Part shown: piece by piece, positions 292-14,331 of the stretch
Layout: each line of letters begins with the position of its first letter
Numbering within the stretch: position 1 is the first letter of the stretch
Source: a virus
Taxonomy: Duplodnaviria; Heunggongvirae; Uroviricota; Caudoviricetes
DNA: 14,331 nucleotides
Strand: one strand, 5' to 3'
IMG/VR virus record: IMGVR_UViG_2778261418_000001
Span: 1-14,331 of that record
Program-made: the position numbers and the translations under genes
Notes under the pieces: model-generated
Database searches by the model: none
What the model was told of the DNA's origin: nothing
What the model saw: the letters and a program-made list of their open reading frames with translations, nothing else

Positions 292-292
292 C

Positions 293-1554: not shown

Positions 1555-1715
1555 TTCTTCCCACTCCGCAACATCGCATTCAGATATTTGTTGTCATTAA
1601 CAGAACCGAAACTCTTTCTCTTAAGTAATTCCTCTCTCGATGGCATTGGCTTTACGCGTTGGCGAATAATCATTTCTGCCGGAAGAATGCCGGGATTGTA
1701 TGCAAGTCCTCTCAT
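1551..1715 (-). CDS. small hypothetical protein (54 aa; start refined from the 104-aa track ORF)
   Basis: The track ORF 1551..1865 overlaps the 97-aa gene in another frame. An internal ATG at 1715 has a GAGGA Shine-Dalgarno 7 nt upstream. Basic C-terminus. Confidence 0.35.
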
Positions 1716-1725
1716 TGTAAATTCC

Positions 1726-2019
1726 TCAGTCATTACTGATAGCGCCATAGCGTGAGCGGTAATTACGCAGGCGCGGGTCAATTTCAGGGAAGTGGGTATA
1801 TGTGGCTTTACGGAATGGTCGGATTGATGTCTGGTAAATTCGCTCGCGTTCTTCTTTCTCTGCAAGCCATATACAGTGGCGAAATTCCTTTTCCTCTTTC
1901 GTTTCCTGCGGTAGCGACATTATCCGATCGTAGTTTTTCCTGAATTTATCCAGCACCTCCGATACGGAATTGCCGGAACAGCGGCGCGGGTCATCCGCAC
2001 CATACAGAGGCGCTGGCAT
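1726..2019 (-). CDS. hypothetical protein (97 aa); possibly Abc2-like anti-RecBCD, by position and size only
   Basis: ATG at 2019 with AAGGA 7-8 nt upstream. Sits just downstream of the erf/ssb module, where P22 carries abc2. Assignment not confirmed by sequence. Confidence 0.5.
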
Positions 2020-2042
2020 AATGGAATCCTTATTTTTCTAAA

Positions 2043-2426
2043 TCAGAATGGGATGGAATCGTCGTATACAGGAGTGTTCTGCTGGTTACTACTTTGCTGA
2101 TGTTGGCTGTTTCCTGAGGTTGCAAATCCAATCTTTGCATTCAGTAATTCAAGAGTGATTGATTGACCATTTTGCCCATGATAAACATCAACCCTGATGT
2201 TTTCTCCGGTAATTTCTACAATGCCACCTTCAACAAGAACACTACGGTAGTAATCCGCTTGCGCTCCCGGCTTGGCAAATACAACGGCGCTGTAGTTTGT
2301 CCATTCTTTCTTTTTTGTCTGGCGATCGTAATACTGAACGCCAGCACGGATGTTGAATCCGATATTTTCCCCGGCCTGAAACTCTCTTGCGGGCTTGTTT
2401 AGTCTTACAGTAATCGAATGTGCCAT
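2043..2426 (-). CDS. ssb: phage single-stranded DNA-binding protein (127 aa from internal ATG)
   Basis: C-terminus ends DDSIPF, the classic SSB acidic tail, after a Gln/Ser-rich linker. ATG at 2426 overlaps the erf stop (TAATG). The 30-residue N-terminal extension in the track ORF lies inside erf. Confidence 0.7.
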   Translation of the reverse strand: MAHSITVRLNKPAREFQAGENIGFNIRAGVQYYDRQTKKKEWTNYSAVVFAKPGAQADYYRSVLVEGGIVEITGENIRVDVYHGQNGQSITLELLNAKIGFATSGNSQHQQSSNQQNTPVYDDSIPF

Positions 2427-3031
2427 TAAGCAGCCGCTCCTTCTAATTCGTCTCGTCTGATGTTGTAAACGTCCTGCGCTTTGTGCTGCTCCGGTGTTCC
2501 TTCGAGCATCTTCCACGCTTTGGCGAACGCCTGTTTAAGATCTTCCACGGTGTTTTTTTGCATTGCTGCGTCAGTGAATGCTTTTAGAACCTGTTCAGGT
2601 GTAGGTGATGGTTTTGATTGCTTTGCTGCTGCGTTCTGCTGATGTTTATGTTCGTCGGTATCTGCATCTTTCGCATCATCAATGCCGAACAAACCATTGA
2701 GGCAATACTTGCGTGCATAAGAGCTTGTAGCTCCCGTAACTTGTGCAGAATCCATTCCTTTCTTGCTTTCTTCCTCTCGTGCAAGAGCAGTTGCCGTATG
2801 ACTGTTTTCGCCATCGGTAATAGTTGCCGTGGCTTTCACGTAATACCGATCACCAATCAACACAACTTCATCGCTGATTGATAAAAACAGGCCATTCAGT
2901 AACGGCTTAACGCCTTCAAGAATGTCTTCGCAGCTTCTGTATTTATATTTTCCGAATGAGTTGTACTGATTCTTTGGCGCGTTCAGATTCTCCTGAATGG
3001 CTGCCAGTCTTGCGTAAAATTCTTTGCTCAT
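2426..3031 (-). CDS. erf: single-strand annealing recombinase, ERF-family candidate
   Basis: From MSKEFYARL the protein matches P22 Erf as recalled from memory, in both sequence and ~200-aa size. Position matches P22 (downstream of cIII/kil). The upstream TTG start has no RBS. Confidence 0.65.
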   Translation of the reverse strand: MSKEFYARLAAIQENLNAPKNQYNSFGKYKYRSCEDILEGVKPLLNGLFLSISDEVVLIGDRYYVKATATITDGENSHTATALAREEESKKGMDSAQVTGATSSYARKYCLNGLFGIDDAKDADTDEHKHQQNAAAKQSKPSPTPEQVLKAFTDAAMQKNTVEDLKQAFAKAWKMLEGTPEQHKAQDVYNIRRDELEGAAA

Positions 3032-3132
3032 ATGATTGTTCTCAGAATGGACATGGCCCAAGGAAATAACGCTGATTTAATACTTCGACTCGGGACAAAT
3101 TAAGGCATACCCGCATTCCTTCGCGGTCACCA

Positions 3133-3291
3133 TTATGGCGATACCAGAGAGCTTTCTGCGTGTACATGCGTCTCTGTAACTTGCTCTCCTTCACTGTGGT
3201 TGCAAGTGACATGAATATCTCCTTCGTTACCGATTAATTCTTTCATCTGACGAATGAATTCTTCGTCTGACCAGTTATCTGTAAAACTCAT
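3133..3291 (-). CDS. small protein (52 aa) in the kil position
   Basis: ATG at 3291 overlaps the cIII stop (ATGA). Lambda and P22 have kil immediately downstream of cIII. No sequence confirmation. Confidence 0.35.
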   Translation of the reverse strand: MSFTDNWSDEEFIRQMKELIGNEGDIHVTCNHSEGEQVTETHVHAESSLVSP

Positions 3292-3458
3292 GGACGGCCT
3301 TGTTGTTTCAAAATATCCCAAAGCTTTTCGAGCAAGCTTTTCATTCTTGGTTGTTTAAAGTCTGCTCCGGTTAAAATGTTTTTTCGTGAATGCTGTACCG
3401 ATAAAATCGGGTTGAAAGGGCGAACCGATGCCGCCCCTGCAATAGCGAACTGCTGCAT
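3288..3458 (-). CDS. cIII: CIII-like protein (56 aa), inhibitor of FtsH-mediated CII degradation
   Basis: Not in the ORF track. ATG at 3458 with AGAAGGAG Shine-Dalgarno. Translation MQQFAIAGAASVRPFNPILSVQHSRKNILTGADFKQPRMKSLLEKLWDILKQQGRP resembles lambda CIII (MQYAIAGW... / ...WKRLIDILNQPG). Confidence 0.65.
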   Translation of the reverse strand: MQQFAIAGAASVRPFNPILSVQHSRKNILTGADFKQPRMKSLLEKLWDILKQQGRP

Positions 3459-3534
3459 AGGATGCTCCTTCTGTTTGATTGCATAACGAAAAACGCCTCG
3501 AGTGAAGCGTTATTGGTATGCGGTAACGCCGCGC

Positions 3535-3903
3535 TCAGGCGGCTTTGATAGTCATATCATCTGAATCAAATATTCCTGATGTATCGATATCGGTAATTCT
3601 TATTCCTTCGCTACCATCCATTGTAGGCCATCCTTCCTGACCATTTCCATCATTCCAGTCGAACTCACACACAACACCATATGCATTTAAGTCGCTTGAA
3701 ATTGCTATAAGCAGAGCATGTTGCGCCAGCATGATTAATACAGCATTTAATACAGAGCCGTGTTTATTGAGTCGGTATTCAGAGTCTGACCAGAAATTAT
3801 TAATCTGGTGAAGTTTTTCCTCTGTCATTACGTCATGGTCGATTTCAATTTCTATTGATGCTTTCCAGTCGTAATCAATGATGTATTTTTTGATGTTTGA
3901 CAT
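3535..3903 (-). CDS. hypothetical protein (122 aa), acidic
   Basis: ATG at 3903 with GAGGA RBS. Lies in the sieB/ral/ea10-equivalent variable slot. No family recognised. Confidence 0.55.
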   Translation of the reverse strand: MSNIKKYIIDYDWKASIEIEIDHDVMTEEKLHQINNFWSDSEYRLNKHGSVLNAVLIMLAQHALLIAISSDLNAYGVVCEFDWNDGNGQEGWPTMDGSEGIRITDIDTSGIFDSDDMTIKAA

Positions 3904-3921
3904 CTATTCATATCCTCACAG

Positions 3922-3948
3922 AAAAAAATCGCCCTCACATCGGAGGGC
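3922..3948 (-). terminator. intrinsic terminator-like hairpin just upstream of the 122-aa gene
   Basis: On the minus strand: GCCCTC-cgatgt-GAGGGC followed by GATTTTTTT, about 19 nt before the RBS. Confidence 0.5.
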
Positions 3949-4052
3949 AAAGAAGATTTCCAATAATCAGAACAAGTCGGCTCCTGTTTAGTTACGAGCG
4001 ACATTGCTCCGTGTATTCACTCGTTGGAATGAATACACAGTGCTTATTTGTA

Positions 4053-4523
4053 CTAATAAAATACCCAATTTTCTGTTTCTTGGTTGTGTCCAAAGTTATA
4101 TTCAATATCTGGTGTTGATGTATCAATATTTTTCATCCCATCAACAAGAGTTGATACAACAGCCAAATCTTGTTTTATTCTCATTAAATGGTATTTCTTC
4201 CGGCGCAATAAACTTTCAATAGCAAGTTTCTTCGTTGGGAATGCAAAAGATCTTTCTGCATTTTTTGCTACTTTCTTAATTGCATATCTATTTCTCCTTT
4301 GTTTCCATTCCTGTAACCACTGATTTGGTGCTGGTTTAAAATCAACAATCCAATGCGCAGGAACCAACCATGCATAATGCTCTGTCTGATGAAAAGCTAT
4401 ATATTGAAGTGCGAATATTTTTATCCCATCTTCTTCAACTGTCGCCTGGAATCTCCAGAAAACAGGCATTCCATCATGTTCAGTTTCTGATTCAGGAAAA
4501 GGTACGCTCCATGATTTTGTCAT
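4053..4523 (-). CDS. hypothetical protein (156 aa)
   Basis: ATG at 4523 with GAGGTG Shine-Dalgarno. The RBS overlaps the stop of the N-like remnant, as expected for the native gene downstream of N. No family recognised. Confidence 0.55.
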   Translation of the reverse strand: MTKSWSVPFPESETEHDGMPVFWRFQATVEEDGIKIFALQYIAFHQTEHYAWLVPAHWIVDFKPAPNQWLQEWKQRRNRYAIKKVAKNAERSFAFPTKKLAIESLLRRKKYHLMRIKQDLAVVSTLVDGMKNIDTSTPDIEYNFGHNQETENWVFY

Positions 4524-4531
4524 ATCTCACC

Positions 4532-4624
4532 TCAAATAAGTGGTTTGCTGCCTAATTTCATTTTCTGGCGACCAACACAAGTCACACCCATTTCACTGCG
4601 TGGCTTGCTGTAGTAAATACGGTT
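4532..4624 (-). pseudogene. N: 3' remnant of an N-type antiterminator gene (C-terminal ~30 codons only)
   Basis: Minus-strand frame translates to NRIYYSKPRSEMGVTCVGRQKMKLGSKPLI-stop, matching the conserved C-terminus of lambda N (YSKPGERGITCSGRQKIKGKSIPLI). The frame is closed by TAA at 4673-4675, has no start codon, and differs from the upstream 147-aa ORF frame. Confidence 0.6.
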
Positions 4625-4630
4625 ATTTAT

Positions 4631-4657
4631 GTAATAAAAAACCCGCCTTAGCGGGTT
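4631..4657 (-). terminator. intrinsic terminator after the 147-aa gene
   Basis: Minus strand: AACCCGC-taag-GCGGGTT followed by TTTTTATT, directly after the 147-aa stop codon. Confidence 0.6.
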
Positions 4658-4658
4658 A

Positions 4659-5102
4659 TTATTTCTTTGGATTTAGCTTTTCCATGTTCTCTGCGATCGT
4701 ACCTATTCTTGACCTTATTGTTGGAATATCAATTCCTCTCTGTATGTCTACATTTAAAGACATAAGCTCTCTGCTCCATCCTGCGATCGCATCGTGAAAT
4801 TGTCTTGCCCTGCTTGCTTGTCTACGTCTGCTGCTTTCAAGCTCTGTAAGCATTTGCTTTGCTTCGATCTGAGACTTGCCTTGCCCAACTCCCAATGCAT
4901 CGATTGCACATTGCCTCATCTCTGCTTTTATCAAAGGGTGAAGATTTTCAGCGCCAATAAAAATTACCTCGTCTATGCTTTTAAAAAGCAGAAGGCAATC
5001 AGTAACAACTTTGGTTCTTTTATCATCACACCTTACCTCTACCGAAGGTACGCCGCCATATTGCTTAACTCTCATTGCCGTGTAAACTGTAGCACTCTTC
5101 AA
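4659..5102 (-). CDS. hypothetical protein (147 aa) occupying the N position; TTG start
   Basis: AAGGAGG Shine-Dalgarno 5 nt before TTG at 5102. First gene after pL. Internal Arg-rich stretch SSRRRQASRARQ. No resemblance to lambda, 21 or P22 N. Confidence 0.55.
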   Translation of the reverse strand: MKSATVYTAMRVKQYGGVPSVEVRCDDKRTKVVTDCLLLFKSIDEVIFIGAENLHPLIKAEMRQCAIDALGVGQGKSQIEAKQMLTELESSRRRQASRARQFHDAIAGWSRELMSLNVDIQRGIDIPTIRSRIGTIAENMEKLNPKK

Positions 5103-5130
5103 ATCAGCCTCCTTTTTCTTTTTCTATATC

Positions 5131-5170
5131 AAAAAGCTGCTTTGCTTTTTGTGACTAAAAGCAAAAAAGC
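5131..5170 (-). promoter_or_regulatory. large hairpin plus U-run in the pL leader, preceded by a boxA-like motif
   Basis: Minus-strand RNA: GCUUUUUUGCUUUU-agucac-AAAAGCAAAGCAGC (14-bp stem, one mismatch) then UUUUU, ending ~17 nt before the RBS. TGCTCATTA lies ~10 nt 5' of the hairpin (boxA consensus CGCTCTTTA). Confidence 0.45.
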
Positions 5171-5259
5171 CTTCTCGCTAATGAGCAGCATTGCCGTTCA
5201 TCCTGAACCCGCCGCGCTCCCGACGCATGGTTTAATGTCGCGCCGTTCGACATGGCTTA

Positions 5260-5301
5260 ACTATACCCAAAGCTATTATTGCTGTAAATAGCTATAGTTA
5301 T
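5260..5301 (-). promoter_or_regulatory. OL/pL: leftward early promoter with overlapping repressor operators
   Basis: Minus strand -35 TTTACA (plus 5283-5288), 17-bp spacer, -10 TATAGT (plus 5260-5265). Operator-like sites ATACC-caaa-GCTAT (5263-5276) and ATAGC-tata-GTTAT (5288-5301), same architecture as OR. Confidence 0.6.
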
Positions 5302-5390
5302 AAAATAACTCCTTTGGTTATTTAGTCATTGATATCTAATGTAATTTATTTTTCTTGTATGTGAGATTTGGTGTTTTTTGGGCAATAAAA

Positions 5391-5409
5391 AACCCGCAAA
5401 AAGCGGGTT
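5391..5409 (-). terminator. intrinsic terminator downstream of cI
   Basis: Stem AACCCGC/GCGGGTT with 5-nt loop. On the minus strand it is followed by TTTTATT. 19 bp past the cI stop. Confidence 0.6.
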
Positions 5410-5427
5410 TGTTGTGGTGTGATGAGG

Positions 5428-6159
5428 TTAGTAGTCAACTACAGACCACCAGAAGATTCTTCCGATGATCTCGATATCGCTTAGATTCTTTTCTTCTTGT
5501 GGGTATTCCAGTGAGTTAAAGCTTCTAATGCTTACCTTGTCAGGCCCTGATCGAAAGAGAATCTTAATGCGTTTCCAACCGTTCTCGTTAATGGCGTAAA
5601 TCTTTCCGTCAACTATTTTCTTATCGTTGGTGTTAACAGCAACTGTTGTTCCATCAGGAATGTTTGGCTCCATGCTGTTGCCACGAGCCGGAAAACAAAC
5701 AACCCCGCTTCCATCACTGTTCGCGCCAACTCTGCGAAGGGTTGATTTGGAGAAGCGCAACATAAAGCCGTTGTGATCTTCATCAATCACCCGACCATCC
5801 CCGCATGCAAACTCAATATCTTTAAGGTAAGGAACTTCAACTTCATCACCTCTTAAAGGCGTTCCTCCATCCCATGGGTCCAAATATCCCCACGTGCTTT
5901 CATGAGGAATAGAAGATTTTGGATTATAAGGTTCAACTCCCTCATCACGCATTGGCCCAGTCCCATCGGAAAGCCATTCCGTACGAACTCCAAGCACTTT
6001 TGATATTTCAAAAAGTTTGCGCGTATTGCGTGTTTTTCCAGACGTAAGTTTCCAGACGCTTGGCTGAGACATGCCAACAGCATTGCCAAGAGAAGCCTGA
6101 GTAAACCCAGCCTGATCCATCGCGTATGTAAGCCTTTGAGAAAAAGTATCTAGTTTCAT
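5428..6159 (-). CDS. cI: CI-type prophage repressor (HTH N-domain plus LexA-like S24 autopeptidase C-domain)
   Basis: N-terminal XRE-type HTH (QASLGNAVGMSQPSVWKL). C-terminal S24 fold with the Ser motif GNSMEP and Lys in KRIK. Divergent from cro, flanked by operators; mRNA appears leaderless from pRM. Confidence 0.85.
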   Translation of the reverse strand: MKLDTFSQRLTYAMDQAGFTQASLGNAVGMSQPSVWKLTSGKTRNTRKLFEISKVLGVRTEWLSDGTGPMRDEGVEPYNPKSSIPHESTWGYLDPWDGGTPLRGDEVEVPYLKDIEFACGDGRVIDEDHNGFMLRFSKSTLRRVGANSDGSGVVCFPARGNSMEPNIPDGTTVAVNTNDKKIVDGKIYAINENGWKRIKILFRSGPDKVSIRSFNSLEYPQEEKNLSDIEIIGRIFWWSVVDY

Positions 6160-6165
6160 TCGTAC

Positions 6166-6236
6166 AACCTATAGCTACAGCTATTATTAGTCAAATACCT
6201 AAAGCTATTTACTTTCTGAATAGCTTTGGCTATTAT
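6166..6236. promoter_or_regulatory. OR region: three operators overlapping divergent pRM and pR
   Basis: Sites ATAGC-taca-GCTAT (6171-6184), ATACC-taaa-GCTAT (6195-6208), AATAGC-tttg-GCTATT (6218-6233). pR: -35 TTTACT (6208-6213), 17 bp, -10 TATTAT (6231-6236). pRM on minus: -35 TTGACT (6189-6194), 17 bp, -10 TAGGTT (6166-6171), with the cI ATG ~7 nt downstream. Confidence 0.65.
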
Positions 6237-6267
6237 TCTGATTGTGAATTCAGCAGGAGTTATTTTT

Positions 6268-6498
6268 ATGGTCAACGAGGCTATTAAAGCGGCTATTGAC
6301 TCAGTAGGAAGTCAGCAAAAGTTAGCTGATGCCTGCGGTGTTAAGCAGCCGTCTGTATGGGCTTGGTTGCATGGGAAGAAAAGGGTATCCGCTGAAAATG
6401 CCAAGCGCATTGAAATGGCTACCAATGGAAGCGTCCCTGCATACCTGATTCGCCCTGATTTATCCGCTTTGTTCCCCAATCCGAACAAAGCAGCTTAA
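6268..6498 (+). CDS. cro: Cro-like repressor (76 aa from ATG 6268)
   Basis: First gene rightward from pR. AGGAG RBS before ATG 6268. HTH QQKLADACGVKQPSVWAWLHGKK. The TTG at 6226 in the track ORF lies inside the operator. Confidence 0.75.
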   Translation: MVNEAIKAAIDSVGSQQKLADACGVKQPSVWAWLHGKKRVSAENAKRIEMATNGSVPAYLIRPDLSALFPNPNKAA

Positions 6499-6617
6499 TA
6501 AAGCAAATTTTTATACCGAACGGCCCGGTATACGGTCGGGTGCCCGGCGTGGTCATGGATGACTGTCAATGGTGCACAATAAAAAACCAAATTATTTACC
6601 TATGGAAATAGTAAGAA

Positions 6618-6914
6618 ATGGAACAAACAAGTTACAGCAAACTATCACAGCGCGACGTTGATCGCGCAGAAACAGATTTACTTATCAACCTGTCAACGCT
6701 TACTCAGCGCGGTCTGGCAAAGATGATTGGCTGTCATGAATCGAAGATAAGCAGAACGGACTGGAGATTTATTGCTTCAGTCTTGTGTGCTTTCGGAATG
6801 GCATCAGACATCAGTCCGATTAGTAGGGCTTTTAAGTATGCGCTTGATGGAATCACAAAGAAAAAATCCCCGGCCGCCACCGAGGATTTTAAGCAAATTG
6901 ATATGCAATTCTGA
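6618..6914 (+). CDS. cII: CII-like transcriptional activator
   Basis: 98 aa. C-terminal KKKSPAATEDFKQIDMQF aligns with lambda CII (KKRPAATERSEQIQMEF), with the HTH centrally. Position after cro. Confidence 0.75.
   Translation: MEQTSYSKLSQRDVDRAETDLLINLSTLTQRGLAKMIGCHESKISRTDWRFIASVLCAFGMASDISPISRAFKYALDGITKKKSPAATEDFKQIDMQF
6627..6640 (-). promoter_or_regulatory. putative pRE CII-binding repeat (TTGC-N6-TTGT) inside the 5' end of cII
   Basis: Minus strand reads TTGCtgtaacTTGT. Lambda pRE has TTGC-N6-TTGC flanking its -35 in the same place and orientation. Confidence 0.35.
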
Positions 6915-6946
6915 GGGAATTACTGGATCAATCCACAGGAGTAATT

Positions 6947-7591
6947 ATGACATACGAAAATGACAAATTCCAGGTTCTGAAGAGCATGAAGGTTCCAGAT
7001 GATTTTAAATCAAATGGCTTTGTTTATGTGCTTTCGAATGAGTGCATGCCAGGAATTTATAAGATTGGGATGACTAAGCATTCACCAGAAGTTAGGGCTA
7101 AAGAAATTTCAGCCTCTACTGGCGTTCCTAAGCCATTTAAGGTGATAGCAGCCTTTCATTCAAATAATCCCGCATCAGATGAAAAACTCATTCATAAAGC
7201 CTTTGCAAAAGAGAGGCTTAGTGATAATCGAGAGTTTTTCAAGCTTGAAGATAATGATCTTTCTGAATCTCTAAATGAAATAAGGGCGCTGGTTGGCCCT
7301 GAAAGAAATGGCGAGACGGCAGAATACGCAATTTACGACTCATTCATTTCTTTTCGCCATGAAAATGAGCTTGATCTTAATGAGGAGCTTATAGAGCAAG
7401 GTCTGGGTAGTGTAGTTGGTCATCTTCCTGCGGTGAAAAATTTCCTTATTCGCGCCGGAATTGATTACGCGAAGCAACTGATAAGCAAATATAACTCATC
7501 GATAGTTATTAATACAGATGGCAGTGTGGTGATGGTTAAGTCTCTTGAAGCCCAATGCTTTGATGCGGAGGTTGGAAATGAGCCTTGCTGA
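6947..7591 (+). CDS. T5orf172 (GIY-YIG-like) domain protein; moron between cII and O
   Basis: GGAG RBS. N-terminal GFVYVLSNECMPGIYKIGMTKHSPEVRAKEI ... REFFKL matches the T5orf172/MUG113 GIY-YIG-related pattern. Lambda has cII directly followed by O. Confidence 0.65.
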   Translation: MTYENDKFQVLKSMKVPDDFKSNGFVYVLSNECMPGIYKIGMTKHSPEVRAKEISASTGVPKPFKVIAAFHSNNPASDEKLIHKAFAKERLSDNREFFKLEDNDLSESLNEIRALVGPERNGETAEYAIYDSFISFRHENELDLNEELIEQGLGSVVGHLPAVKNFLIRAGIDYAKQLISKYNSSIVINTDGSVVMVKSLEAQCFDAEVGNEPC

Positions 7592-8420
7592 AGTATTTTA
7601 CCTGCCGAAGAGTGAACCTGTTGAACAGGAGCGAAGAGTGGCTGATATCGATGATGGTTACACCAGATTCGCTAACGAGCTGCTGGAAGCTATCGCAAGT
7701 GCCGATTTAACCGCTCGCCAGTTGAAAGTTATGCTGGCCTACGTCCGGAAAACATATGGATTCAATAAGAAAACAGATCGAATAGCCGATGAGCAAATTG
7801 CTCAGTTAACAGGACTGTCAAGGCAGAATGTTAACAAGGCTAAAAAAGAACTGATTTCAATGAATTGCCTGTTTATGGATGGAAATCAAATCGGTGTAAA
7901 CAGTGAGGTATCTGCGTGGCAATTCAGCAAGTGTCTCCAAGTTAGCAACTTTGTCTCGAAGTTAGAGACAAAAAATGTCTCCAAATTAGAGACACTCAAT
8001 GTCTCGAAGTTAGAGACACACAAAAGACATTCTTTAAAGACAAAAGAAAATATTAATAAACCCCCTATATCCCCCAAAAAAGTTTCTCAGAAGTTCGACC
8101 CGCTAGAAACAGAGTTGCCTGATTGGTTATCAGCAGAAACATGGTTGTCGTGGGTTACCTATCGCAAGGAGATAGGTAAGTCGATCAAGTCTAAGCAAAG
8201 TGTCACTCAGGCTATCAACGTTCTAAGCAGAAGTCTGGAGAAGGGATATACACCTGAAGAAATTATAAACCAGAGCATCGCCAGTGGTTGGCAGGGGATT
8301 TTTGAGCCCAAGACTCCAAAGGGGAAATCTCAACCGAGGCCGCAGCATCGAGCTATGCAGGAAAACTTTGCCACCAAAGATTACGGACAAACTGAAATGC
8401 CTTCATGGGCGCAGGAGTGA
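7578..8420 (+). CDS. O: replication initiator O (lambda O family)
   Basis: N-terminal RRVADIDDGYTRFANELLEA...LKVMLAYVRKTYGFNK aligns with lambda O (RNVADLDDGYARLSNMLLEA...FKVLLAILRKTYGWNK). Iterons lie inside the ORF. Start set at ATG 7578 (GGAGG RBS) rather than 7545. Confidence 0.85.
   Translation: MSLAEVFYLPKSEPVEQERRVADIDDGYTRFANELLEAIASADLTARQLKVMLAYVRKTYGFNKKTDRIADEQIAQLTGLSRQNVNKAKKELISMNCLFMDGNQIGVNSEVSAWQFSKCLQVSNFVSKLETKNVSKLETLNVSKLETHKRHSLKTKENINKPPISPKKVSQKFDPLETELPDWLSAETWLSWVTYRKEIGKSIKSKQSVTQAINVLSRSLEKGYTPEEIINQSIASGWQGIFEPKTPKGKSQPRPQHRAMQENFATKDYGQTEMPSWAQE
7932..8075. repeat. lambdoid replication origin: four iterons plus AT-rich region inside O
   Basis: Iterons at 7932, 7952, 7976 and 8000, each ~19 bp (TGTCTCgaagttaGAGACA, with internal dyad TGTCTC/GAGACA); the first is degenerate. 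Followed by AT-rich 8020-8075. Confidence 0.8.
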
Positions 8421-8422
8421 AC

Positions 8423-9268
8423 ATGACGCTGGATGAAAAGATCTCCCAACTGGAGAAAAAACTTGCAGAATTGAGTTCTCCGCCAATTGCTATCGAGCAT
8501 ACAGCTGTAGAAATTGGCACTGGCATCTGTGAAAAACATGGTGAGTTTGAGCAGCGTAACCGTTACTCGACTGGGCCAATTAAGTTTGCCTCAAGACCTA
8601 GCGAATGCCCGGAATGCATGAGAGATGAGCTTATTCGGCTACAGGCAGAGAAGATTAAAATCGACGAAGAATCACGTAAGCGCAATGTCGAGTTTCTGTT
8701 GAATAATCTTGATATTCCTGAACGATTCAAGGGTTGCACACTACAGAACTACGAGCCAGTCAACGACGATGCAAAGAGAGTGCTCAGGGTGTGTCAGGCA
8801 TACGCCAGCAAATGGCCTGAGAGGTTACAGAAAGGCGGTGGGCTGGTTATGTGTGGAAAGCCTGGTACTGGAAAGAATCATCTTGCACTGGCTATCGCCC
8901 GGCACGCAATTACGGAACATCAAAGCTCAGCTATTTTCACAACGGCGCTGAAAATTGCCAGAGAATATAAATCAACATGGTCGAAAAACTCCACCCGCAC
9001 AGAGGATGAAGTGATCCGACAGTTCACTAAACCTGACCTGCTAATTATCGATGAGGTTGGTGTGCAGTTTGGAAGCGAGGCGGAAAAGATGATCATGTTC
9101 GAAATCATCAACACCCGCTACGAGCGCATGAAGCCAACAATCCTGATTAGCAACCAGAGCAAAGATGAACTGTCTGCATTCATTGGTGAGCGTGTTATTG
9201 ACAGGATGAATGATGGCGGCGGGTGCACTCTTGCGTTTACATGGGATAGTTACAGGAGCAGATCGTGA
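8423..9268 (+). CDS. DnaC-like helicase loader (IstB-type AAA+ ATPase) with N-terminal zinc-ribbon-like Cys motif
   Basis: Walker A GKPGTGKNHLA and Walker B LLIIDEVG. CxxH...CPEC motif near the N-terminus. AGGAG RBS before ATG 8423. Directly downstream of O. Confidence 0.85.
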   Translation: MTLDEKISQLEKKLAELSSPPIAIEHTAVEIGTGICEKHGEFEQRNRYSTGPIKFASRPSECPECMRDELIRLQAEKIKIDEESRKRNVEFLLNNLDIPERFKGCTLQNYEPVNDDAKRVLRVCQAYASKWPERLQKGGGLVMCGKPGTGKNHLALAIARHAITEHQSSAIFTTALKIAREYKSTWSKNSTRTEDEVIRQFTKPDLLIIDEVGVQFGSEAEKMIMFEIINTRYERMKPTILISNQSKDELSAFIGERVIDRMNDGGGCTLAFTWDSYRSRS

Positions 9269-9555
9269 CTGGAAAAGAAATCATCCTGGAATATCTGAAA
9301 ACTCATGAACAATTCTCCCCACATGAATTAGCACTGATCACCGGAATACCAAATAACAGAATCGCTCAAGCAGCAAGGCATATGGTGAAACAAGGACATT
9401 TGAGTGTTGTTGAGCGTAAGTGGAAGACGGTTATTTATGCAAAACGCAAAGTGAAGAAGGAGCCAATTAAAAGAAATCCAGATGGTACGGGGTGGGGATG
9501 TGCAAATCCAATGACGGCGTTTATTAATAGGGCGCTTATGGAGGTAAGGCAATGA
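9265..9555 (+). CDS. ren: Ren-like protein (96 aa)
   Basis: GTG start overlapping the loader stop (GTGA), GGAG RBS. MTGKEIILEYLKTHEQFSPHELALITG... aligns with lambda Ren (MTGKEAIIHYLGTHNSFCAPDVAALTG...), same length and position. Confidence 0.7.
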   Translation: MTGKEIILEYLKTHEQFSPHELALITGIPNNRIAQAARHMVKQGHLSVVERKWKTVIYAKRKVKKEPIKRNPDGTGWGCANPMTAFINRALMEVRQ

Positions 9556-9580
9556 CCATCTACATCACTGAGCTAATAAC

Positions 9581-9613
9581 AGGCCTGCTGGTAATCGCAG
9601 GCCTTTTTATTTG
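9581..9613 (+). terminator. tR2-like intrinsic terminator between ren and ninB
   Basis: AGGCCTGC-tggtaatc-GCAGGCCT followed by TTTTATTTG. Confidence 0.6.
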
Positions 9614-9628
9614 GGGGAGAGGGAAGTC

Positions 9629-10069
9629 ATGAAAAAACTAACCTTTGAAATTCGATCCCCAGCACATCAGCAAAACGCTATTCACGCGGTACAGCAAATT
9701 CTTCCAGACCCAACCAAACCAATCGTAGTGACCATCCAGGAACGCAACCGCAGCTTAGACCAAAATCGGAAGCTTTGGGCTTGCTTAGGTGACGTCTCTC
9801 GTCAGGTTGAATGGCATGGTCGCTGGCTGGATGCAGAAAGCTGGAAGTGTGTGTTTACCGCAGCATTAAAGCAGCAGGACGTTGTTCCTAACCTTGCCGG
9901 GAATGGCTTTGTGGTAATAGGCCAGTCAACCAGCAGGATGCGTGTAAGCGAATTTGCGGAGCTATTAGAGCTTATACAGGCATTCGGTACAGAGCGTGGC
10001 GTTAAGTGGTCAGACGAAGCGCGACTGGCTCTCGAATGGAAAGCGCGATGGGGAGATCGGGCTGCATGA
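9629..10069 (+). CDS. ninB: NinB recombination protein
   Basis: From MKKLTFEIRSPAHQQNAIHAVQQILPDPTKP... the protein is essentially identical to lambda NinB as recalled from memory. Confidence 0.9.
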   Translation: MKKLTFEIRSPAHQQNAIHAVQQILPDPTKPIVVTIQERNRSLDQNRKLWACLGDVSRQVEWHGRWLDAESWKCVFTAALKQQDVVPNLAGNGFVVIGQSTSRMRVSEFAELLELIQAFGTERGVKWSDEARLALEWKARWGDRAA

Positions 10070-10590
10070 CTATCAAATCAAATACGCCAGCGTCAGATAG
10101 GTATCGGCTTATTGAGGATTATCTGTATTTAGACGGAGATACAGTCAGGTACAAAAAGGACTCGCTAAAACACCCCAACCACAGCCACCGGGCCGGAGAT
10201 GAAATTAAAACATCGATAAATGGATCTGGGTATAGACAGGTGTGTTTTGCAGGCATTCAGATGTTTGTTCACGTAGTTGTTTTTGCGCTGCACAACAAAA
10301 GAATGCCATTGAAAAATATTGACCATATTAACGGAAACAGGCTGGACAATTCCCCAAAAAATCTTAGGGAGGCAAGCCGGATAGCAAACAGCCGAAATCA
10401 GAAAACTAAGTGCAATAGCCGTTCTGGAATAAAAAATGTTTTATGGAACAAGCAAAAAAATAAATGGGCCGTTCAAGTGCGCACAGATTTTGGCCGGTTG
10501 CATTTTGGGTTCTATGAAGATCTTGAGCTTGCTGGTTTGGTTGCCAGTGAGGCTATCAACAAATATCACGGACAATATGCGAGGGTTTAA
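10066..10590 (+). CDS. HNH endonuclease with AP2-like DNA-binding domain (free-standing homing-endonuclease type)
   Basis: ATG 10066 overlaps the ninB stop (ATGA). HNH motif IDHINGNRLDNSPKNLR. C-terminal AP2-like WNKQKNKWAVQV...GFYEDLELAG. Inserted between ninB and the next nin gene. Confidence 0.8.
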   Translation: MTIKSNTPASDRYRLIEDYLYLDGDTVRYKKDSLKHPNHSHRAGDEIKTSINGSGYRQVCFAGIQMFVHVVVFALHNKRMPLKNIDHINGNRLDNSPKNLREASRIANSRNQKTKCNSRSGIKNVLWNKQKNKWAVQVRTDFGRLHFGFYEDLELAGLVASEAINKYHGQYARV

Positions 10591-11120
10591 TGATTAAGCA
10601 TAAATCAGAAACACCAAAAGAAGTTAGAGACTGCTGGCAAACGCCGCTTTGGCTTTTTGATGCACTGGATATTGAGTTTGGATTCTGGCTGGATTCGGCA
10701 GCGAGCGACAAAAATGCTCTGTGCGCTCACTGGCTAACTGAGGCCGACGACGCACTCAATTCTGAGTGGATAAGCCACGGTGCAATCTGGAATAACCCAC
10801 CGTACAGCAATATCAGGCCGTGGGTGGAAAAAGCCGCTGAGCAGTGCATACAACAGCGACAGACGGTAGTGATGCTTGTGCCAGAGGATATGTCTGTCGG
10901 ATGGTTCAGCAAGGCTCTGGAGAGTGTTGACGAAGTTCGCATTATCACTGATGGACGGATTAATTTTATCGAACCATCGACAGGGCTGGAGAAGAAGGGA
11001 AACAGTAAAGGCTCCATGCTGCTGATTTGGCGACCGTTCATCAGTCCTCGACGGATGTTTACTACCGTATCCAAAGCGGCATTGATGGCGATCGGGCAGG
11101 GCGTCAGGAGGGCGGCATGA
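10590..11120 (+). CDS. dam: phage Dam-type DNA N6-adenine methyltransferase
   Basis: Catalytic NPPY motif (IWNNPPYSN), size and nin-region position typical of phage orphan N6-adenine methyltransferases. TAATG overlap with the HNH gene. Confidence 0.8.
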
Positions 11121-11299
11121 GACGACAGCGACGAAGTATCACCGACATAATCTGCGAAAACTGCAAATACCTTCCAACGAAGCGCTCCAGAAATAAACGC
11201 AAGCAAATCCCAAAAGAATCTGACGTAAAAACCTTCAATTACACGGCTCACCTGTGGGATATCCGGTGGCTTAGAGAACGTGCGAGGAAAACAAGGTGA
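11117..11299 (+). CDS. ninE: NinE
   Basis: [60 protein letters not shown] is near-identical to lambda NinE as recalled. ATGA overlap with dam. Confidence 0.85.
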
Positions 11300-11466
11300 T
11301 TGACCCAAATCGAAGTTACGAACAAGAAAGCGTCGAGCGGGCTTTAACGTGCGCTAACTGCGGTCAGAAGCTGCATTTTCTGGAAGTTCACGTGTGCTCC
11401 GATTGCTGCGCAGAACTGATGAGCGATCCGAATAGCTCAATGTACGAGGAAGAAGACGATGAATGA
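11296..11466 (+). CDS. ninF: NinF (56 aa, GTG start)
   Basis: Not in the ORF track. GTG at 11296 overlaps the ninE stop. Translation [56 protein letters not shown] matches lambda NinF. Confidence 0.8.
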
Positions 11467-12181
11467 GTTAATAAATGGCAATGCCATCAAAATGACAAGC
11501 ATTGAAATCGCTGAGTTGGTGGGTAAGCGTCATGACAATGTGAAACGTACCATCGAAACGCTGGCTAAAAATGGTGTTATCCGGCTTCCTCAAATTGAGG
11601 TTTCCGAAAGAATCAATAACTTAGGGTTCAATGTTCAGTACGAGCATTACGTCTTCGAAGGCGAACAAGGTAAGCGAGATAGTATTGTTGTTGTTGCCCA
11701 GTTGTCGCCGGAATTCACCGCTCGTCTTGTTGACCGTTGGCGAGAGCTTGAAGAAGCTGCGGTTAATATCCCAAAAACGCTACCAGAAGCGTTGCGCCTT
11801 GCTGCTGATCTTGCTGAGCAGAAAATGCAACTGGAAAACCAGCTTGCAATTGCCGCACCTAAAGTTGAGTTTGCCGATCGCGTTGGCGAGGCCAGCGGAA
11901 TTTTGATTGGAAACTTTGCAAAGGTTGTCGGTATTGGTCCAAACAAACTGTTTGCGTGGATGCGCGATCACAAAATCCTTATTGCTTCAGGTTCCCGGCG
12001 CAATGTGCCAATGCAGGAATATATGGATCGCGGCTATTTCACAGTGAAAGAAACAGCGGTCAACACAAATCACGGAATACAGATATCGTTCACCACAAAA
12101 ATCACCGGGCGTGGTCAACAGTGGCTGACCAGAAAGCTGCTCGATAACGGAATGCTGAAAGTAACAGGGGAGGCTGCTTAA
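11459..12181 (+). CDS. antirepressor-like protein (Rha-type N-domain plus KilA-C/Ant C-domain)
   Basis: N-terminus (MTSIEIAELVGKRHDNVKRTIETL) resembles the Rha regulatory domain. The C-terminal half (FAKVVGIGPNKLFAWMRDHKIL...) resembles the KilA-C antirepressor domain. Inserted between ninF and ybcO. Confidence 0.7.
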   Translation: MNELINGNAIKMTSIEIAELVGKRHDNVKRTIETLAKNGVIRLPQIEVSERINNLGFNVQYEHYVFEGEQGKRDSIVVVAQLSPEFTARLVDRWRELEEAAVNIPKTLPEALRLAADLAEQKMQLENQLAIAAPKVEFADRVGEASGILIGNFAKVVGIGPNKLFAWMRDHKILIASGSRRNVPMQEYMDRGYFTVKETAVNTNHGIQISFTTKITGRGQQWLTRKLLDNGMLKVTGEAA

Positions 12182-12471
12182 TGGCTAACCTACGCAAAGA
12201 AGCACGCGGCAGAGAATGCCAGGTACGTATTTACGGAATATGCAATGGTAATCCTGAAACTACAGTTCTGGCACATTACCGGATGGCTGGAATTTGCGGA
12301 ACGGGAATGAAGCCTGACGACCTGATCGGCGCATGGGCTTGTAGCGCGTGTCACGATGAAATCGACCGACGCACCCATAACCTCGACAACAAAGACGCCA
12401 GACTTTACCACCTGGAAGGCGTGATCAGGACGCAGGCGATACTGCTGAAGGAGGGGAAGATTAAGCCATGA
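12181..12471 (+). CDS. ybcO: YbcO-like DUF1364 protein (Cys-rich, putative nuclease)
   Basis: 96 aa with a conserved Cys pattern (CQVRIYGICNG...CSACHDEIDRR). Same size and position (before rusA) as DLP12 YbcO. Confidence 0.65.
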   Translation: MANLRKEARGRECQVRIYGICNGNPETTVLAHYRMAGICGTGMKPDDLIGAWACSACHDEIDRRTHNLDNKDARLYHLEGVIRTQAILLKEGKIKP

Positions 12472-12830
12472 ACGAATATCAGTTTGTGCTTCCATACCCG
12501 CCGTCGGTGAACACCTACTGGCGAAGACGGGGAAGCCAATACTACATCAGCGATAAAGGCCAGAAATACCGAAAAGACGTTCAGCAAATCATCCGCCAAC
12601 TTAAGTTAGACATTTTCACCAAATCACGACTCCGCATCAAAGTCATCGCAGACGTTCCAGACTCCCGCCGCCGCGACCTCGACAACATCCTGAAAGGTTT
12701 ACTCGACTCCCTTATCCACGCCGGATTCGCGGAAGACGACGAGCAATTCGATGACATTCGCGTAATTCGTGGTGTGAAAGTACCAGGTGGACGGCTTGGA
12801 GTAAAAATCACCGAACTGGAGAACGTATGA
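12468..12830 (+). CDS. rusA: RusA Holliday-junction resolvase
   Basis: 120 aa. Motifs LPYPPSVNTYW and RRRDLDN and C-terminal GGRLGVKITEL align with E. coli RusA (LPWPPSNNRYY, RRRDLDN, GGRLELTITEM). Confidence 0.85.
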   Translation: MNEYQFVLPYPPSVNTYWRRRGSQYYISDKGQKYRKDVQQIIRQLKLDIFTKSRLRIKVIADVPDSRRRDLDNILKGLLDSLIHAGFAEDDEQFDDIRVIRGVKVPGGRLGVKITELENV

Positions 12831-13015
12831 ACGCCACAATTCAAACGATACCAGAGCTTCTTATCCAGACACGAGGTAATCAGACCGAAGTGGCGAGGAT
12901 GCTTTCCTGCGCAAGAGGAACAGTGCTCAAGTACAACCGAGACAGAAAAGGCGAGCGTCACGTAATAGTTAACGGCGTCCTGATGGTCACGCCAGGCAAA
13001 AAGGGAAGACGATGA
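12827..13015 (+). CDS. ninH: NinH-like small DNA-binding protein
   Basis: IPELLIQTRGNQTEVARMLSCARGTVLKYNRDRKGERHVIVNGVLMV aligns with lambda NinH (IPDMLVEAYGNQTEVARRLKCSRGTVRKYVDDKDGKMHAIVNDVLMV). Confidence 0.75.
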   Translation: MNATIQTIPELLIQTRGNQTEVARMLSCARGTVLKYNRDRKGERHVIVNGVLMVTPGKKGRR

Positions 13016-13530
13016 GCATAAGAGAACTAAACCTCACCAAAGAACAGCACGAGTGGCTGAATGGCTGGCTTGAACTGTGGGGCGCATGGGTTTATTCAGG
13101 TCGTCTGGAAAAGCGTATGAGCAGCGTAATAGCGAAGTTCATGGAGAGCGTAGAGCCGGGAAGAGTTATGACAAGGCCAATGTGCAATGATGATGATGGA
13201 ATGTTGATTTCTCAGGTCGTCGATTCCGTCATGTACATTGACAAAAAAGCCTTTGGCATCCTCCTCAGCTACTACGCTCATGGTTCATCTAAGCGAGCAA
13301 TTGCATCCTACTATCACGCGACTGCAAAGCCACGCAAGATGTGTGGACGTGGTGGCGAGGGATGGAGAAAACCTTCACTGGCAACCTGTAGAAACGAAAT
13401 TGACGACATCCTGAAAGCGTCATTATTTGTTTTATACCAGCCGATGCAAAATGCTTTCAAAATGCGTAAACGTGTTGAGAAAGTTAAGCATATTGCTGTT
13501 AAAAGCCTTGACATGCAATTATCCATTTAG
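13012..13530 (+). CDS. Q: late-gene antiterminator Q (QuuD/phage 21-82 type, not lambda-Q type)
   Basis: Pattern LELWGAW ... RPMCNDDDGML ... LLSYYAHG parallels DLP12 QuuD (ERWGAW ... RPQCCDDDAMI ... LLVDYYVVG) as recalled. Last gene before the putative late promoter. Confidence 0.8.
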   Translation: MSIRELNLTKEQHEWLNGWLELWGAWVYSGRLEKRMSSVIAKFMESVEPGRVMTRPMCNDDDGMLISQVVDSVMYIDKKAFGILLSYYAHGSSKRAIASYYHATAKPRKMCGRGGEGWRKPSLATCRNEIDDILKASLFVLYQPMQNAFKMRKRVEKVKHIAVKSLDMQLSI

Positions 13531-13537
13531 CCATAAT
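13508..13537 (+). promoter_or_regulatory. putative late promoter pR' overlapping the 3' end of Q
   Basis: TTGACA (13508-13513), 18-bp spacer, CATAAT (13532-13537). The hairpin with U-run ~10 nt downstream would give a short terminated transcript, as in lambdoid pR'/tR'. Confidence 0.5.
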
Positions 13538-13548
13538 TAGAAGGTAAG

Positions 13549-13588
13549 CTACCGTTAGTGACTCTTAAGTTGCAACGGTGGCTTTTTT
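13549..13588 (+). terminator. tR'-like intrinsic terminator
   Basis: CTACCGTT ... AACGGTGG (8 bp including one G-U) around a 17-nt loop, then C and TTTTTT. Confidence 0.5.
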
Positions 13589-13592
13589 ATTT

Positions 13593-13667
13593 GGGTCAGT
13601 CGTATAAAGGTCATTACGGAAGGCTGTTAACCTTCTTATCGTGGTTCGAGTCCACGCTGTCCCGCCA
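13593..13667 (+). tRNA. tRNA, anticodon GUU (Asn) by manual fold; imperfect stems
   Basis: 75 nt cloverleaf. Anticodon arm GAAGG-CTGTTAA-CCTTC, T-arm CGTGG-TTCGAGT-CCACG, 3' GCCA. One mismatch each in the acceptor and D stems, so it may be divergent or a pseudo-tRNA. Confidence 0.55.
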
Positions 13668-13672
13668 AATAT

Positions 13673-13748
13673 GCTGGTTTAGCTCCAATGGTAGAGCGGT
13701 CGCCTTGTAAGCGAATGGGTAGCGGTTCAAGTCCGTTAACCAGCACCA
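13673..13748 (+). tRNA. tRNA, anticodon UGU (Thr) by manual fold
   Basis: 76 nt. Perfect 7-bp acceptor stem (GCTGGTT/AACCAGC), D-arm GCTC-CAATGGTA-GAGC, anticodon loop CTTGTAA, T-arm AGCGG-TTCAAGT-CCGTT, ACCA 3' end. Confidence 0.7.
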
Positions 13749-13834
13749 TAACTGAGCCGTAGCCACTGGCTATCCTGAACTCATCAGTGATAGTTATGCT
13801 GCGGCCTTCTACACATGACCTTCGTGAAAGCGGG

Positions 13835-13869
13835 TGGCAGGAGGTTGCGCTAACAACCTCCTGCCGTTT
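13835..13869 (+). terminator. strong hairpin terminator between the tRNAs and the lysis genes
   Basis: GGCAGGAGGTTG-cgctaa-CAACCTCCTGCC (12-bp perfect stem) followed by GTTTT. Confidence 0.6.
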
Positions 13870-13992
13870 TGCCCGTGCATATCGGTCACGAACAAATCTG
13901 ATTACTAAACACAGTAGCCTGGATTTGTTCTATCAGTAATCGACCTTATTTCTAATTAAATAGAGCAAATCCCCTCAATGAAGGGGTAGAGC

Positions 13993-14196
13993 ATGTACCG
14001 TATGGACAAAATCAGAGAATGGTTCAGTTACAGCTTCGGAGGACTGACTGCGATGGGTGGCATTCTCTCCCTGAATGACTGGGCTGTCATCATTGGTATT
14101 CTTTGTACTGTCGGCACATTTGGCATCAACTGGTACTACAAGCGCAAAGAGCGCGAGGACAGATTGAATGGCAATGTCACCGGCACTACGAAATAG
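13993..14196 (+). CDS. holin, dual-start pinholin-like (67/64 aa)
   Basis: MYRM dual-start motif (Met1 and Met4, with Arg between). Two predicted TMDs, the first Gly/Ala-rich. Short charged C-terminus. Immediately followed by an overlapping SAR endolysin. Confidence 0.75.
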
Positions 14197-14331
14197 CGTA
14201 ATAGCGGCGATAAGTGGCGGGGCTATTGCTATAGCATCTGTGTTAATCACTGGACCAAGTGGTAACGATGGTCTGGAAGGTGTCAGCTACATACCATACA
14301 AAGATATTGTTGGTGTATGGACTGTATGCCA
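14174..14331 (+). CDS. SAR endolysin (phage 21 R-type lysozyme), 5' part; runs off the window
   Basis: [52 protein letters not shown] closely matches the N-terminus of phage 21 R / DLP12 RrrD as recalled ([57 protein letters not shown]). Overlaps the holin end in another frame. Confidence 0.8.

Follow-up and report, generated by a model that had tools for sequence, protein, structure and literature searches.

How are tRNA genes expressed when they lie directly behind the late terminator of a lambdoid prophage, and what might they supply? We addressed this question for two tRNA genes in the IMG/VR virus record IMGVR_UViG_2778261418_000001 (Caudoviricetes), of which positions 1 to 14,331 were analyzed (14,331 nucleotides, hereafter the window). 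The two genes stand between the lysis genes and tR', the terminator that follows the late promoter pR'. The region is a copy of a well-known, widely annotated cassette, whose layout is known in phages 21, Sf6, L, SfI, and BTP1. We consider it likely that the locus represents the standard late-operon start of a P22-like/lambdoid prophage with a phage-21-type Q antiterminator, and that its two tRNAs form a promoterless passenger cassette expressed by Q-dependent read-through. The coordinates of all features are listed in Table 1.

A first-pass annotation, made from the sequence alone, had proposed two tRNA genes with the anticodons GUU and UGU, and had suggested a tRNA predictor as a check. ARAGORN called exactly two tRNA genes in the window, tRNA-Asn and tRNA-Thr, and both scored far above the gathering score of 29 with the Rfam model RF00005 (55.3 and 61.2 bits, respectively). 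An Rfam E-value search of 12800-14331 returned no family beyond these two tRNAs. The first-pass annotation had also noticed mismatches in the acceptor and D stems of the first tRNA, from which it suspected a divergent or decaying gene. The mismatches are real, and the Rfam alignment places one in the acceptor stem (U4.U69) and the other in the D stem (U13.U22). These two non-Watson-Crick pairs would fit a decaying pseudogene, as would the thermodynamic fold of tRNA-Asn, which is close to that of shuffled sequence (z-score, z, of -1.7). Pair 13:22 of tRNAs is, however, often non-canonical, and the gene retains G73 and an encoded CCA in addition to its high Rfam score. Moreover, the same sequence, mismatches included, is found in the divergent phages 21, SfI, JLK-2012, and Salfasec13b, and Tbat2_3 has only one change, in the T loop. 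The variant in the window is the commonest of nine in IMG/VR, where 64 of 80 copies are identical over all 75 nt. The suspicion of decay was thus not borne out, and we regard a pseudogene as very improbable. tRNA-Asn is conserved across six lambdoid copies while the adjacent tRNA-Thr and the flanks vary, and in Tbat2_3 and CMS-2020a the pair U3-A70 of tRNA-Thr is replaced by C3-G70. Because tRNA-Asn is conserved and the stem changes in tRNA-Thr are compensatory, both tRNAs are under selection.

Recognition of tRNA-Asn by its synthetase depends on G34, U35, U36, and G73, and that of tRNA-Thr on G1-C72, C2-G71, G35, and U36. All of these identity elements were present when read from the sequence and the cmscan alignment, and charging of both tRNAs is predicted from them. 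The anticodon loops are identical to those of E. coli K-12 asnT and thrU (CUGUUAA for Asn), but outside the loop both tRNAs are very unlike these host genes. This wide difference rules out recent capture from the host, with the chimeric Thr copy of JLK-2012 as an exception to the non-host origin; the tRNAs are old phage genes. In JLK-2012, the annotated tRNA-Thr (2629-2704 of the compared stretch) consists of 25 nt of the phage type followed by ~50 nt close to K-12 thrU. It was not called by ARAGORN and may be a recombinant that has lost its function.

We then asked what lies directly upstream. As had been proposed, a pR' of the form TTGACA-18-CATAAT precedes the tRNAs. It is the sole strong plus-strand promoter-like site in 12800-14331 according to the promoter scan, is identical in sequence to the annotated pR' of Sf6 and HK75, and has the -35 hexamer TTGACA in common with the experimentally mapped pR' of phage 21. 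The tandem 8-mers AATTATCC and ATTTAGCC occupy the position of ATTGAGCA and AATGAGCA, the Q-binding element (QBE) of phage 21, and are by homology a putative QBE. Identical repeats are present in phage L, in which the Q segment touching the QBE has diverged likewise (PMC8022706). Since both the 8-mers and the C-terminal half of Q differ from those of phage 21, the arrangement looks like a co-varying switch of protein and DNA-site specificity, and such a Q/QBE specificity variant has already been described for phage L (PMC8022706). Downstream of the -10 hexamer, TAAGCTA aligns with the annotated sigma-dependent pause element (SDPE) of phage 21, TAAGCTG, from which it differs by one base, and is a putative pause element. 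In phage L, the putative late start was estimated at 46 bp before the tRNA genes (PMC8022706).

The tR'-like hairpin terminator reported upstream of the tRNAs was likewise supported. The hairpin (13546-13584) folds with a free energy (dG) of -21.2 kcal/mol and a z of -6.5, none of 200 shuffled sequences being as stable, and is followed by UUUUUUAUUU, which gives the tail U6AU3 (9 of 10 U). A simple terminator scan missed it solely owing to the bulge and the stem length. The element is one base off the phage 21 terminator (annotated with PMID 1704887) and off the annotated tR' of Sf6 and HK75. At position 13550 in the stem, G is found in phage 21, Sf6, and HK75 and makes a G.U pair, whereas the A of the window pairs as A-U and slightly strengthens the hairpin. 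As in a Q21-type late antitermination cassette, Q lies upstream, the promoter carries tandem 8-mers, and the terminator lies less than ~50 nt from the start. Override of tR' by Q is predicted here by homology with phage 21.

To see how the tRNAs are placed in other phages, we scanned IMG/VR with the 5' 40 nt of tRNA-Asn and counted contigs with enough flank. In all 94 contigs, a T6-8 run followed by (A/C)TT(T/G) stood directly before the tRNA. The upstream hairpin was of the 21/Sf6 type in 81 contigs, of the lambda type in 9, and of other types in 4, and at least four promoter/QBE variants were found further upstream; the Asn and Thr genes occurred as a pair in 71 of 80. In the window, tRNA-Asn begins one base past the U-run of tR'. 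HK75 has the same Q, promoter, and terminator without the tRNAs, and lambda-like sequence follows its U-run. Conversely, in mEp506 the same tRNA pair starts straight after the U-run of a lambda-type unit (Q, pR', 6S leader, and tR'). In Tbat2_3, which carries Asn-Phe-Thr, a different hairpin with a T6 run (dG -19.2) lies seven bases before tRNA-Asn. tRNA-Asn therefore sits behind at least three different, unrelated types of terminator hairpin. Homology of the cassette ends on the 5' side at the U-run and on the 3' side at the CCA of tRNA-Thr, where lambda homology resumes at once, indicating that the cassette itself contains no promoter or terminator.

Taken together, the abutment on a terminator U-run in 94 of 94 copies, the unrelated hairpins, and the boundaries at the U-run and CCA argue for transcription from upstream through tR', on which the tRNAs would depend. 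A promoter of their own was considered for this locus and rejected: the promoter scan found no plus-strand site between pR' and 13593, and a single base separates the U-run from the tRNA. No perfect consensus promoter was found anywhere in the window by the same scan. Since a promoter would not fit into the cassette, the reading of tRNA expression with the most support is Q-gating, although the proposed gate is probably leaky.

The same module is widespread. Among 5,426 complete E. coli genomes, 824 match the leader and tRNA stretch, and in 347 of these the match covers 80% or more; the matches are annotated as tRNA-Asn and tRNA-Thr, and the cassette finds its best E. coli match at 99.1% identity. 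Over the 1.3 kb from Q to the endolysin gene, more than 20 Salmonella P22-like phages, among them SPN9CC, BTP1, and vB_SosS_Oslo, show 94-96% identity; over the first 75% of this stretch, Shigella phage Sf6 and several E. coli phages reach 97-98%. The whole cassette is 98.5% identical to those of Sf6 and BTP1. The position of the second tRNA in Salfasec13b (974-1050 of the compared stretch) holds a different sequence that ARAGORN did not call, probably the counterpart of a Leu(UAA) tRNA that has been described in phage L and in ST64T. Because Salfasec13b probably carries a Leu(UAA)-type tRNA there, the second slot of the cassette appears to be exchangeable.

On this basis, expression would proceed as follows. 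pR' would fire constitutively, and without Q, RNA polymerase would stop at tR' and release a leader RNA of ~46-49 nt. After induction, Q would bind the 8-mers in the promoter spacer, join the polymerase held at the sigma-dependent pause, and render it resistant to terminators. For phage 21, a relative, the record annotates from experiments each DNA element on which these steps depend (promoter, QBE, pause element, and terminator), and we infer that Q of the window is specific for its own QBE variant. The polymerase would then read tR' and the two tRNAs, of which the terminator-type hairpin, both tRNA genes, and their homology were observed here, and continue through a ~245-nt structured leader into the holin, endolysin, and virion genes. 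The tRNAs would presumably be cut from the long transcript by tRNA-processing enzymes of the host, with RNase P acting at G13593 and G13673 and the 3' ends trimmed to the encoded CCA. Once mature, they could add decoding capacity for ACA, which the phage over-uses ~3-fold, and to a lesser extent for Asn codons; this benefit, like the excision, is extrapolated.

Table 1. Features of the late-operon start in the window
Feature	Position	Strand	Basis
Q late-gene antiterminator, Q21 type, 172 aa	13012-13530	+	PF06530, E 1e-25, 90.3 bits
Late promoter pR', TTGACA-18-CATAAT, overlapping the 3' end of Q	13508-13537	+	Promoter scan, 11/12 matches
Putative Q-binding element within the promoter spacer, two tandem 8-mers (AATTATCC/ATTTAGCC)	13517-13532	+	Homology
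Late mRNA start, approximate (13544-13547), and SDPE homologue TAAGCTA (13545-13551), putative	13544-13551	+	Alignment with phage 21
tR' intrinsic terminator, bulged hairpin of 17 pairs and UUUUUUAUUU	13546-13592	+	Fold and homology
tRNA-Asn(GUU), G73, encoded CCA, mismatches U4.U69 and U13.U22	13593-13667	+	ARAGORN; Rfam, 55.3 bits
tRNA-Thr(UGU), G1-C72, C2-G71, A73, encoded CCA	13673-13748	+	ARAGORN; Rfam, 61.2 bits
Hairpin A of the structured lysis leader	13756-13805	+	dG -27.7, z -4.4; conserved in lambda, Sf6, phage 21, SfI
Hairpin B, outer helix 13830-13835/13871-13876, inner stem 13836-13847/13854-13865	13830-13876	+	dG -32.4, z -5.3
Class II holin, first protein gene of the late operon	13993-14196	+	PF16080, E 4e-21
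Endolysin gene, 5' part, running past the window end	14168-14331	+	ORF (open reading frame) read; endolysin/lysin in homologous phages

We next examined codon usage. The genes in the window contain 15.6 ACA and 51.7 Asn codons (both codons together) per 1000. The corresponding values are 16.7 and 48.0 for the late genes of Sf6 and 12.6 and 42.9 for its early genes, compared with 5.4 and 37.7 in a 50-kb sample of K-12. Relative to the other Thr codons, ACA is enriched with an odds ratio of 3.5-4.0 (p 1e-10 to 1e-14), or of 3.6-4.0 (p about 1e-12 to 1e-14) when the window genes and the Sf6 late genes are set against the K-12 sample, and Asn codons are enriched 1.3-1.4-fold. The values published for ACA in SfI, 17.3 versus 7.1, were reproduced here (PMC3636060). 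The first-pass annotation had proposed a comparison of the late genes for AAC and ACA; this comparison showed an enrichment of ACA and a modest one of Asn codons, but no signal specific to the late genes. Matching specific to late genes was rejected, as the ACA bias was found equally in early genes. In the Sf6 coat gene, AAC:AAT is 17:11, which is less extreme than the 24/25 reported for this comparison in phage L (PMC8022706). The case for codon supply is thus only moderate.

Several observations weigh against Q-gated expression for codon supply. Regarding the route, the authors of the phage L study stated that it is not known whether the tRNAs are cut from the late mRNA or have their own promoter (PMC8022706), and in the Stx2a phage Sp5 the tRNAs of this slot have a start site of their own downstream of tR'; an Sp5-type start would be impossible at the present locus for lack of space. 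HK75, CUS-3, and lambda do without the tRNAs, which are therefore dispensable. A terminator-resistant polymerase from the early right operon, as expected from lambda biology, would also reach the tRNAs, and cultures of BTP1 lysogens give a high tRNA signal, the BTP1 authors setting the two tRNA genes aside when they list the genes above 100 transcripts per million (TPM). These last points suggest that the tRNAs might be made mainly without Q, by leakage through tR' from a constitutive pR' or by resistant early-operon polymerase arriving via the nin region, in which case they would act early or in the lysogen rather than being late-gated. In line with such a route, lambdoid pR' shows constitutive activity in lysogens (PMC7547250). 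Transcripts that read through from anywhere upstream would include the tRNAs, since these follow Q directly on the same strand, and as stable RNAs they could accumulate from a small leak. The BTP1 copy that gives the high signal is 98.5% identical to that of the window. On the other hand, tR' is a strong hairpin with a tail of 9 U in 10, and spontaneous induction of BTP1 is unusually high and could by itself explain the signal. Standard RNA-seq quantifies tRNAs poorly, and the BTP1 supplementary tables give no TPM values for tRNAs. The signal fits either leakage through tR' or a stable RNA accumulating from a few induced cells. We judge predominantly Q-independent synthesis unlikely.

Regarding use, the presence of the ACA bias in early genes (12.6 per 1000) weakens the codon-supply argument; AGA, AGG, and ATA, which are served by the tRNAs of Stx phages, are more skewed than ACA; and the authors of the SfI study found no clear case for tRNA-Asn (PMC3636060). 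The tRNAs might accordingly serve something other than codon supply, either by replacing host tRNAs lost to tRNA-cleaving toxins or defence nucleases, or as near-neutral hitchhikers at a recombination hot spot. The codon match is modest, with ACA not the most skewed codon and Asn barely skewed, and the cassette is missing from many related phages. Outside the anticodon loop, the two tRNAs bear very little resemblance to host asnT and thrU, and the U4.U69 mismatch in the acceptor stem is conserved. Some other phages are known to use tRNAs of their own against defences that target tRNA. By contrast, nucleases that act on the anticodon loop would still cut these tRNAs, whose loops are identical to the host's, a defence nuclease specific for Asn or Thr(UGU) tRNA was not identified here, and the strong sequence conservation speaks against neutrality. 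A counter-defence role is possible, but taken together these alternatives to codon supply seem slightly less likely than the Q-independent synthesis above. Leakage and protection can also be joined in a single proposal, to which we give little credence: the cassette would be a mobile module, and its constant position at the U-run of whichever tR' precedes it would let it draw both on the leak from pR' in the lysogen and on Q read-through, so that the tRNAs would be present in lysogens and would alter host translation or protect the cell from tRNA-targeting toxins. Under this proposal, the conserved U4.U69 could be functional, for example in evading nucleases, and the RNase P cut could free the ~47-nt leader as a small RNA of fixed length, in the lysogen and after induction alike. 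If terminator leak does supply the tRNAs in lysogens, it would amount to a quiet form of lysogenic conversion.

Q-gated read-through remains the reading that we prefer, and the annotation itself is routine: this is a further copy of a cassette described since the 1991 work on phage 21, and many GenBank records carry its annotation. What the locus can still contribute concerns the route of tRNA expression, which was left open in the literature (PMC8022706), and for which the comparative evidence argues for upstream transcription through tR'. A paper on satellite integration contains nothing on prophage tRNAs in the slot behind tR'.

Downstream of the tRNAs, the first-pass annotation had placed a second strong terminator with a 12-bp stem. 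The stem is real: hairpin B has a perfect 12-bp inner stem (-22.9 kcal/mol alone) and a 6-bp outer helix, which together reach -32.4 kcal/mol. In an alignment with lambda, Sf6, HK97, P22, ES18, and SE16, three pairs are changed on both sides, and 92.8% of cells pair, compared with 32-56% when the partners are slid. The terminator assignment fared less well. Hairpin B meets the description of an intrinsic terminator in its GC-rich stem-loop but lacks the U-tract of ~7-8 nt, since its tail GUUUUGCC (GUUUUG) has only 4 U in 8 and was not called by the terminator scan; the corresponding tails are GCUUUG in Sf6 and UGAUCUGC in P22-type copies. Its T-weight is 1.7, compared with 3.7-3.8 for tR' hairpins. 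On a terminator-type score, of which only the ranking is used, it reaches -12 here and -26 to -53 in homologues, compared with about -1 to +11 for tR' hairpins. Hairpin B is found in 35 of 80 tRNA-bearing IMG/VR loci and is missing in phage 21, and it is present in three phages without tRNAs, namely lambda, HK97, and P22. The curated records of lambda, P22, and Sf6 carry no annotation of it. Hairpin B is thus real and under selection, but is not convincing as a terminator; it forms part of a lysis leader of the lambda type.

What, then, might hairpin B do? As a working second terminator, it would box in the tRNAs and shield the lysis genes from leakage through tR'. Its stability, its stem (which alone is perfect over all 12 bp in a comparison of eight copies), and the 4-U tail that follows are compatible with this function, and terminators may occupy this interval elsewhere: Tbat2_3 has a hairpin with a T6 run before the holin, and phage 21 and SfI have hairpin A followed by T5-7. 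The window, however, has neither of these runs, the tail of hairpin B can pair into the outer helix, and P22, ES18, and SE16 keep a compensated hairpin without a U-run. Together with the low ranking of its score and its distribution among phages with and without tRNAs, this leaves a terminator function doubtful, if somewhat less so than Q-independent expression of the tRNAs. A more promising, still tentative alternative is that hairpins A and B serve in processing or stability of the late mRNA leader, as RNase III sites or a protective 5' structure. The whole tRNA-to-holin spacer (13749-13995, 247 nt) folds at -97 kcal/mol (z -7.45), and in phages that use four different types of Q, hairpin B shows compensatory changes at three pairs and a loop, CGCUAA, that does not vary. 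Its inner and outer helices together make ~18 bp, a length that we infer would suit RNase III. A 1988 paper reportedly deals with sites at which this enzyme processes the Q-dependent late transcript of lambda, which we take from its title as a lead rather than a result; those sites are not known to coincide with hairpins A or B. The spacer hairpins match no Rfam family, and the stem of every homologue except that of the window has one mismatch, both of which count against processing or stability. A U-run after hairpin A was seen only in copies of the 21/SfI type (T5-7; 1352-1412 in phage 21 and about 1052-1110 in SfI, in the compared stretches), and was absent from lambda, Sf6, and the window. 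Unlike the window, phage 21 and SfI may therefore have a second terminator behind their tRNAs.

The proposed order of Q, pR', tR', tRNAs, and lysis genes agrees with the curated records of Sf6 and phage 21, and with that of HK75 for Q, pR', and tR'. In phage 21, the order of parts is the same (pR', QBE, pause, tR', tRNA-Asn, tRNA-Thr, and then S21), tRNA-Asn likewise starts directly after the terminator U-run with tRNA-Thr next, and the leader, terminator, and both tRNAs (13545 to 13760) are ~98% identical. The 2022 record of this phage annotates the -35, the QBE as two tandem 8-mers, the -10, the start, the SDPE, and the terminator (PMID 1704887). Phage 21 differs from the window in its QBE, its -10, the C-terminal half of Q, and its type of holin. 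The spacer between its tRNAs and the holin is also shorter, with a T-run following hairpin A and without the 12-bp hairpin. Also close are the P22-like phages Sf6, L, BTP1, SPN9CC, and ST64T, with a type 3 Q, which are 95-98.5% identical over Q, promoter, terminator, tRNAs, and leader. The Sf6 record lists gene 59 ("similar to phage 21 Q"), the late promoter, qut, tR', tRNA-Asn ("similar to phage 21"), tRNA-Thr, and the holin. Sf6 differs by one base in the first 8-mer (ATTAGCC) and in having a lambda-S-type holin, whereas BTP1 and SPN9CC share the class II holin of the window. Phage L and Salfasec13b have a Leu(UAA)-type second tRNA instead of Thr. tRNA-Asn(GUU) and tRNA-Thr(UGU) downstream of Q have been reported for SfI, Sf6, ST64T, PS3, and phage 21 (PMC3636060).

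The first-pass annotation had likened the layout to that of Stx phages, in which tRNAs and cargo lie downstream of tR', and this parallel proved stronger than proposed. In Stx phages of the 2851 and 933W/Sp5 types, tRNAs lie downstream of tR' and before the lysis genes, as in the window, but they are tRNA-Ile/Arg/Arg serving ATA, AGA, and AGG, and are accompanied by toxin genes. Stx2c phage 2851 shares a Q21-type Q, a 21-type promoter, the leader, the terminator, and the first 24 nt of the same tRNA-Asn with the window, before it diverges into tRNA-Ile/Arg/Arg and stx2AB. This 24-nt stub (3045-3073 of the compared stretch) directly follows the 21-type terminator, and is apparently the footprint of a toxin cassette that replaced an Asn-Thr cassette or arose beside one. 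The resemblance to Stx phages is therefore homology rather than analogy, and the two slots are one and the same. In JLK-2012, Asn, a Thr copy, and Gly occupy the slot, followed by the cargo genes tciA and tciB. The Stx2a phage Sp5 has a 258-nt leader that yields the small RNA StxS, compared with a leader of ~47 nt in the window. In agreement with the claim that the present slot holds no toxin or other protein cargo, we found no credible ORF between tRNA-Thr and the holin (13749-13992); this stretch is a non-coding leader of the lambda type. From 13749 to ~13990, including hairpins A and B and a pre-holin hairpin, it is ~95% identical to lambda 44946-45182. Lambda differs in its unrelated Q, its 194-nt leader, and the absence of tRNAs, the tRNA slot being occupied by ~190 bp of other sequence.

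The window as a whole is a mosaic. Its best match among phage records, PDP110P2, covers 53% at 97.5% identity; the early region is HK97/HK022-like, and the end from Q to the lysis genes is nearest to Salmonella P22-like phages. Upstream of the tRNAs, the genes for YbcO, RusA, and NinH precede Q, whose product is 172 aa long and 85% identical to Q of phage 21 over 162 aa. Nearly all differences fall past residue 94, in the C-terminal half (codons 13294-13530), which contacts DNA in Q21.

Within Q, a CII-type box, TTGCGTGGCTTTGC, lies on the minus strand at 13324-13337 and aligns with the annotated CII-binding site of paQ in phage 21, which suggests a conserved antisense promoter within Q. A second CII-type box (6627-6640, minus strand) stands at the start of a cII-like ORF, the usual position of pRE. 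The count of CII motifs in the window is no higher than expected by chance, so that only the positional homology of these boxes is meaningful.

The holin annotation is carried by more than 20 near-identical phages. A small hairpin (13971-13986) precedes the gene, and the N-terminus of the product reads M-Y-R-M (region 13971-14004), a possible dual-start arrangement for holin and antiholin. The gene starting at 14168 overlaps the end of the holin gene, and its product has a hydrophobic N-terminus like that of signal-anchor-release (SAR) endolysins.

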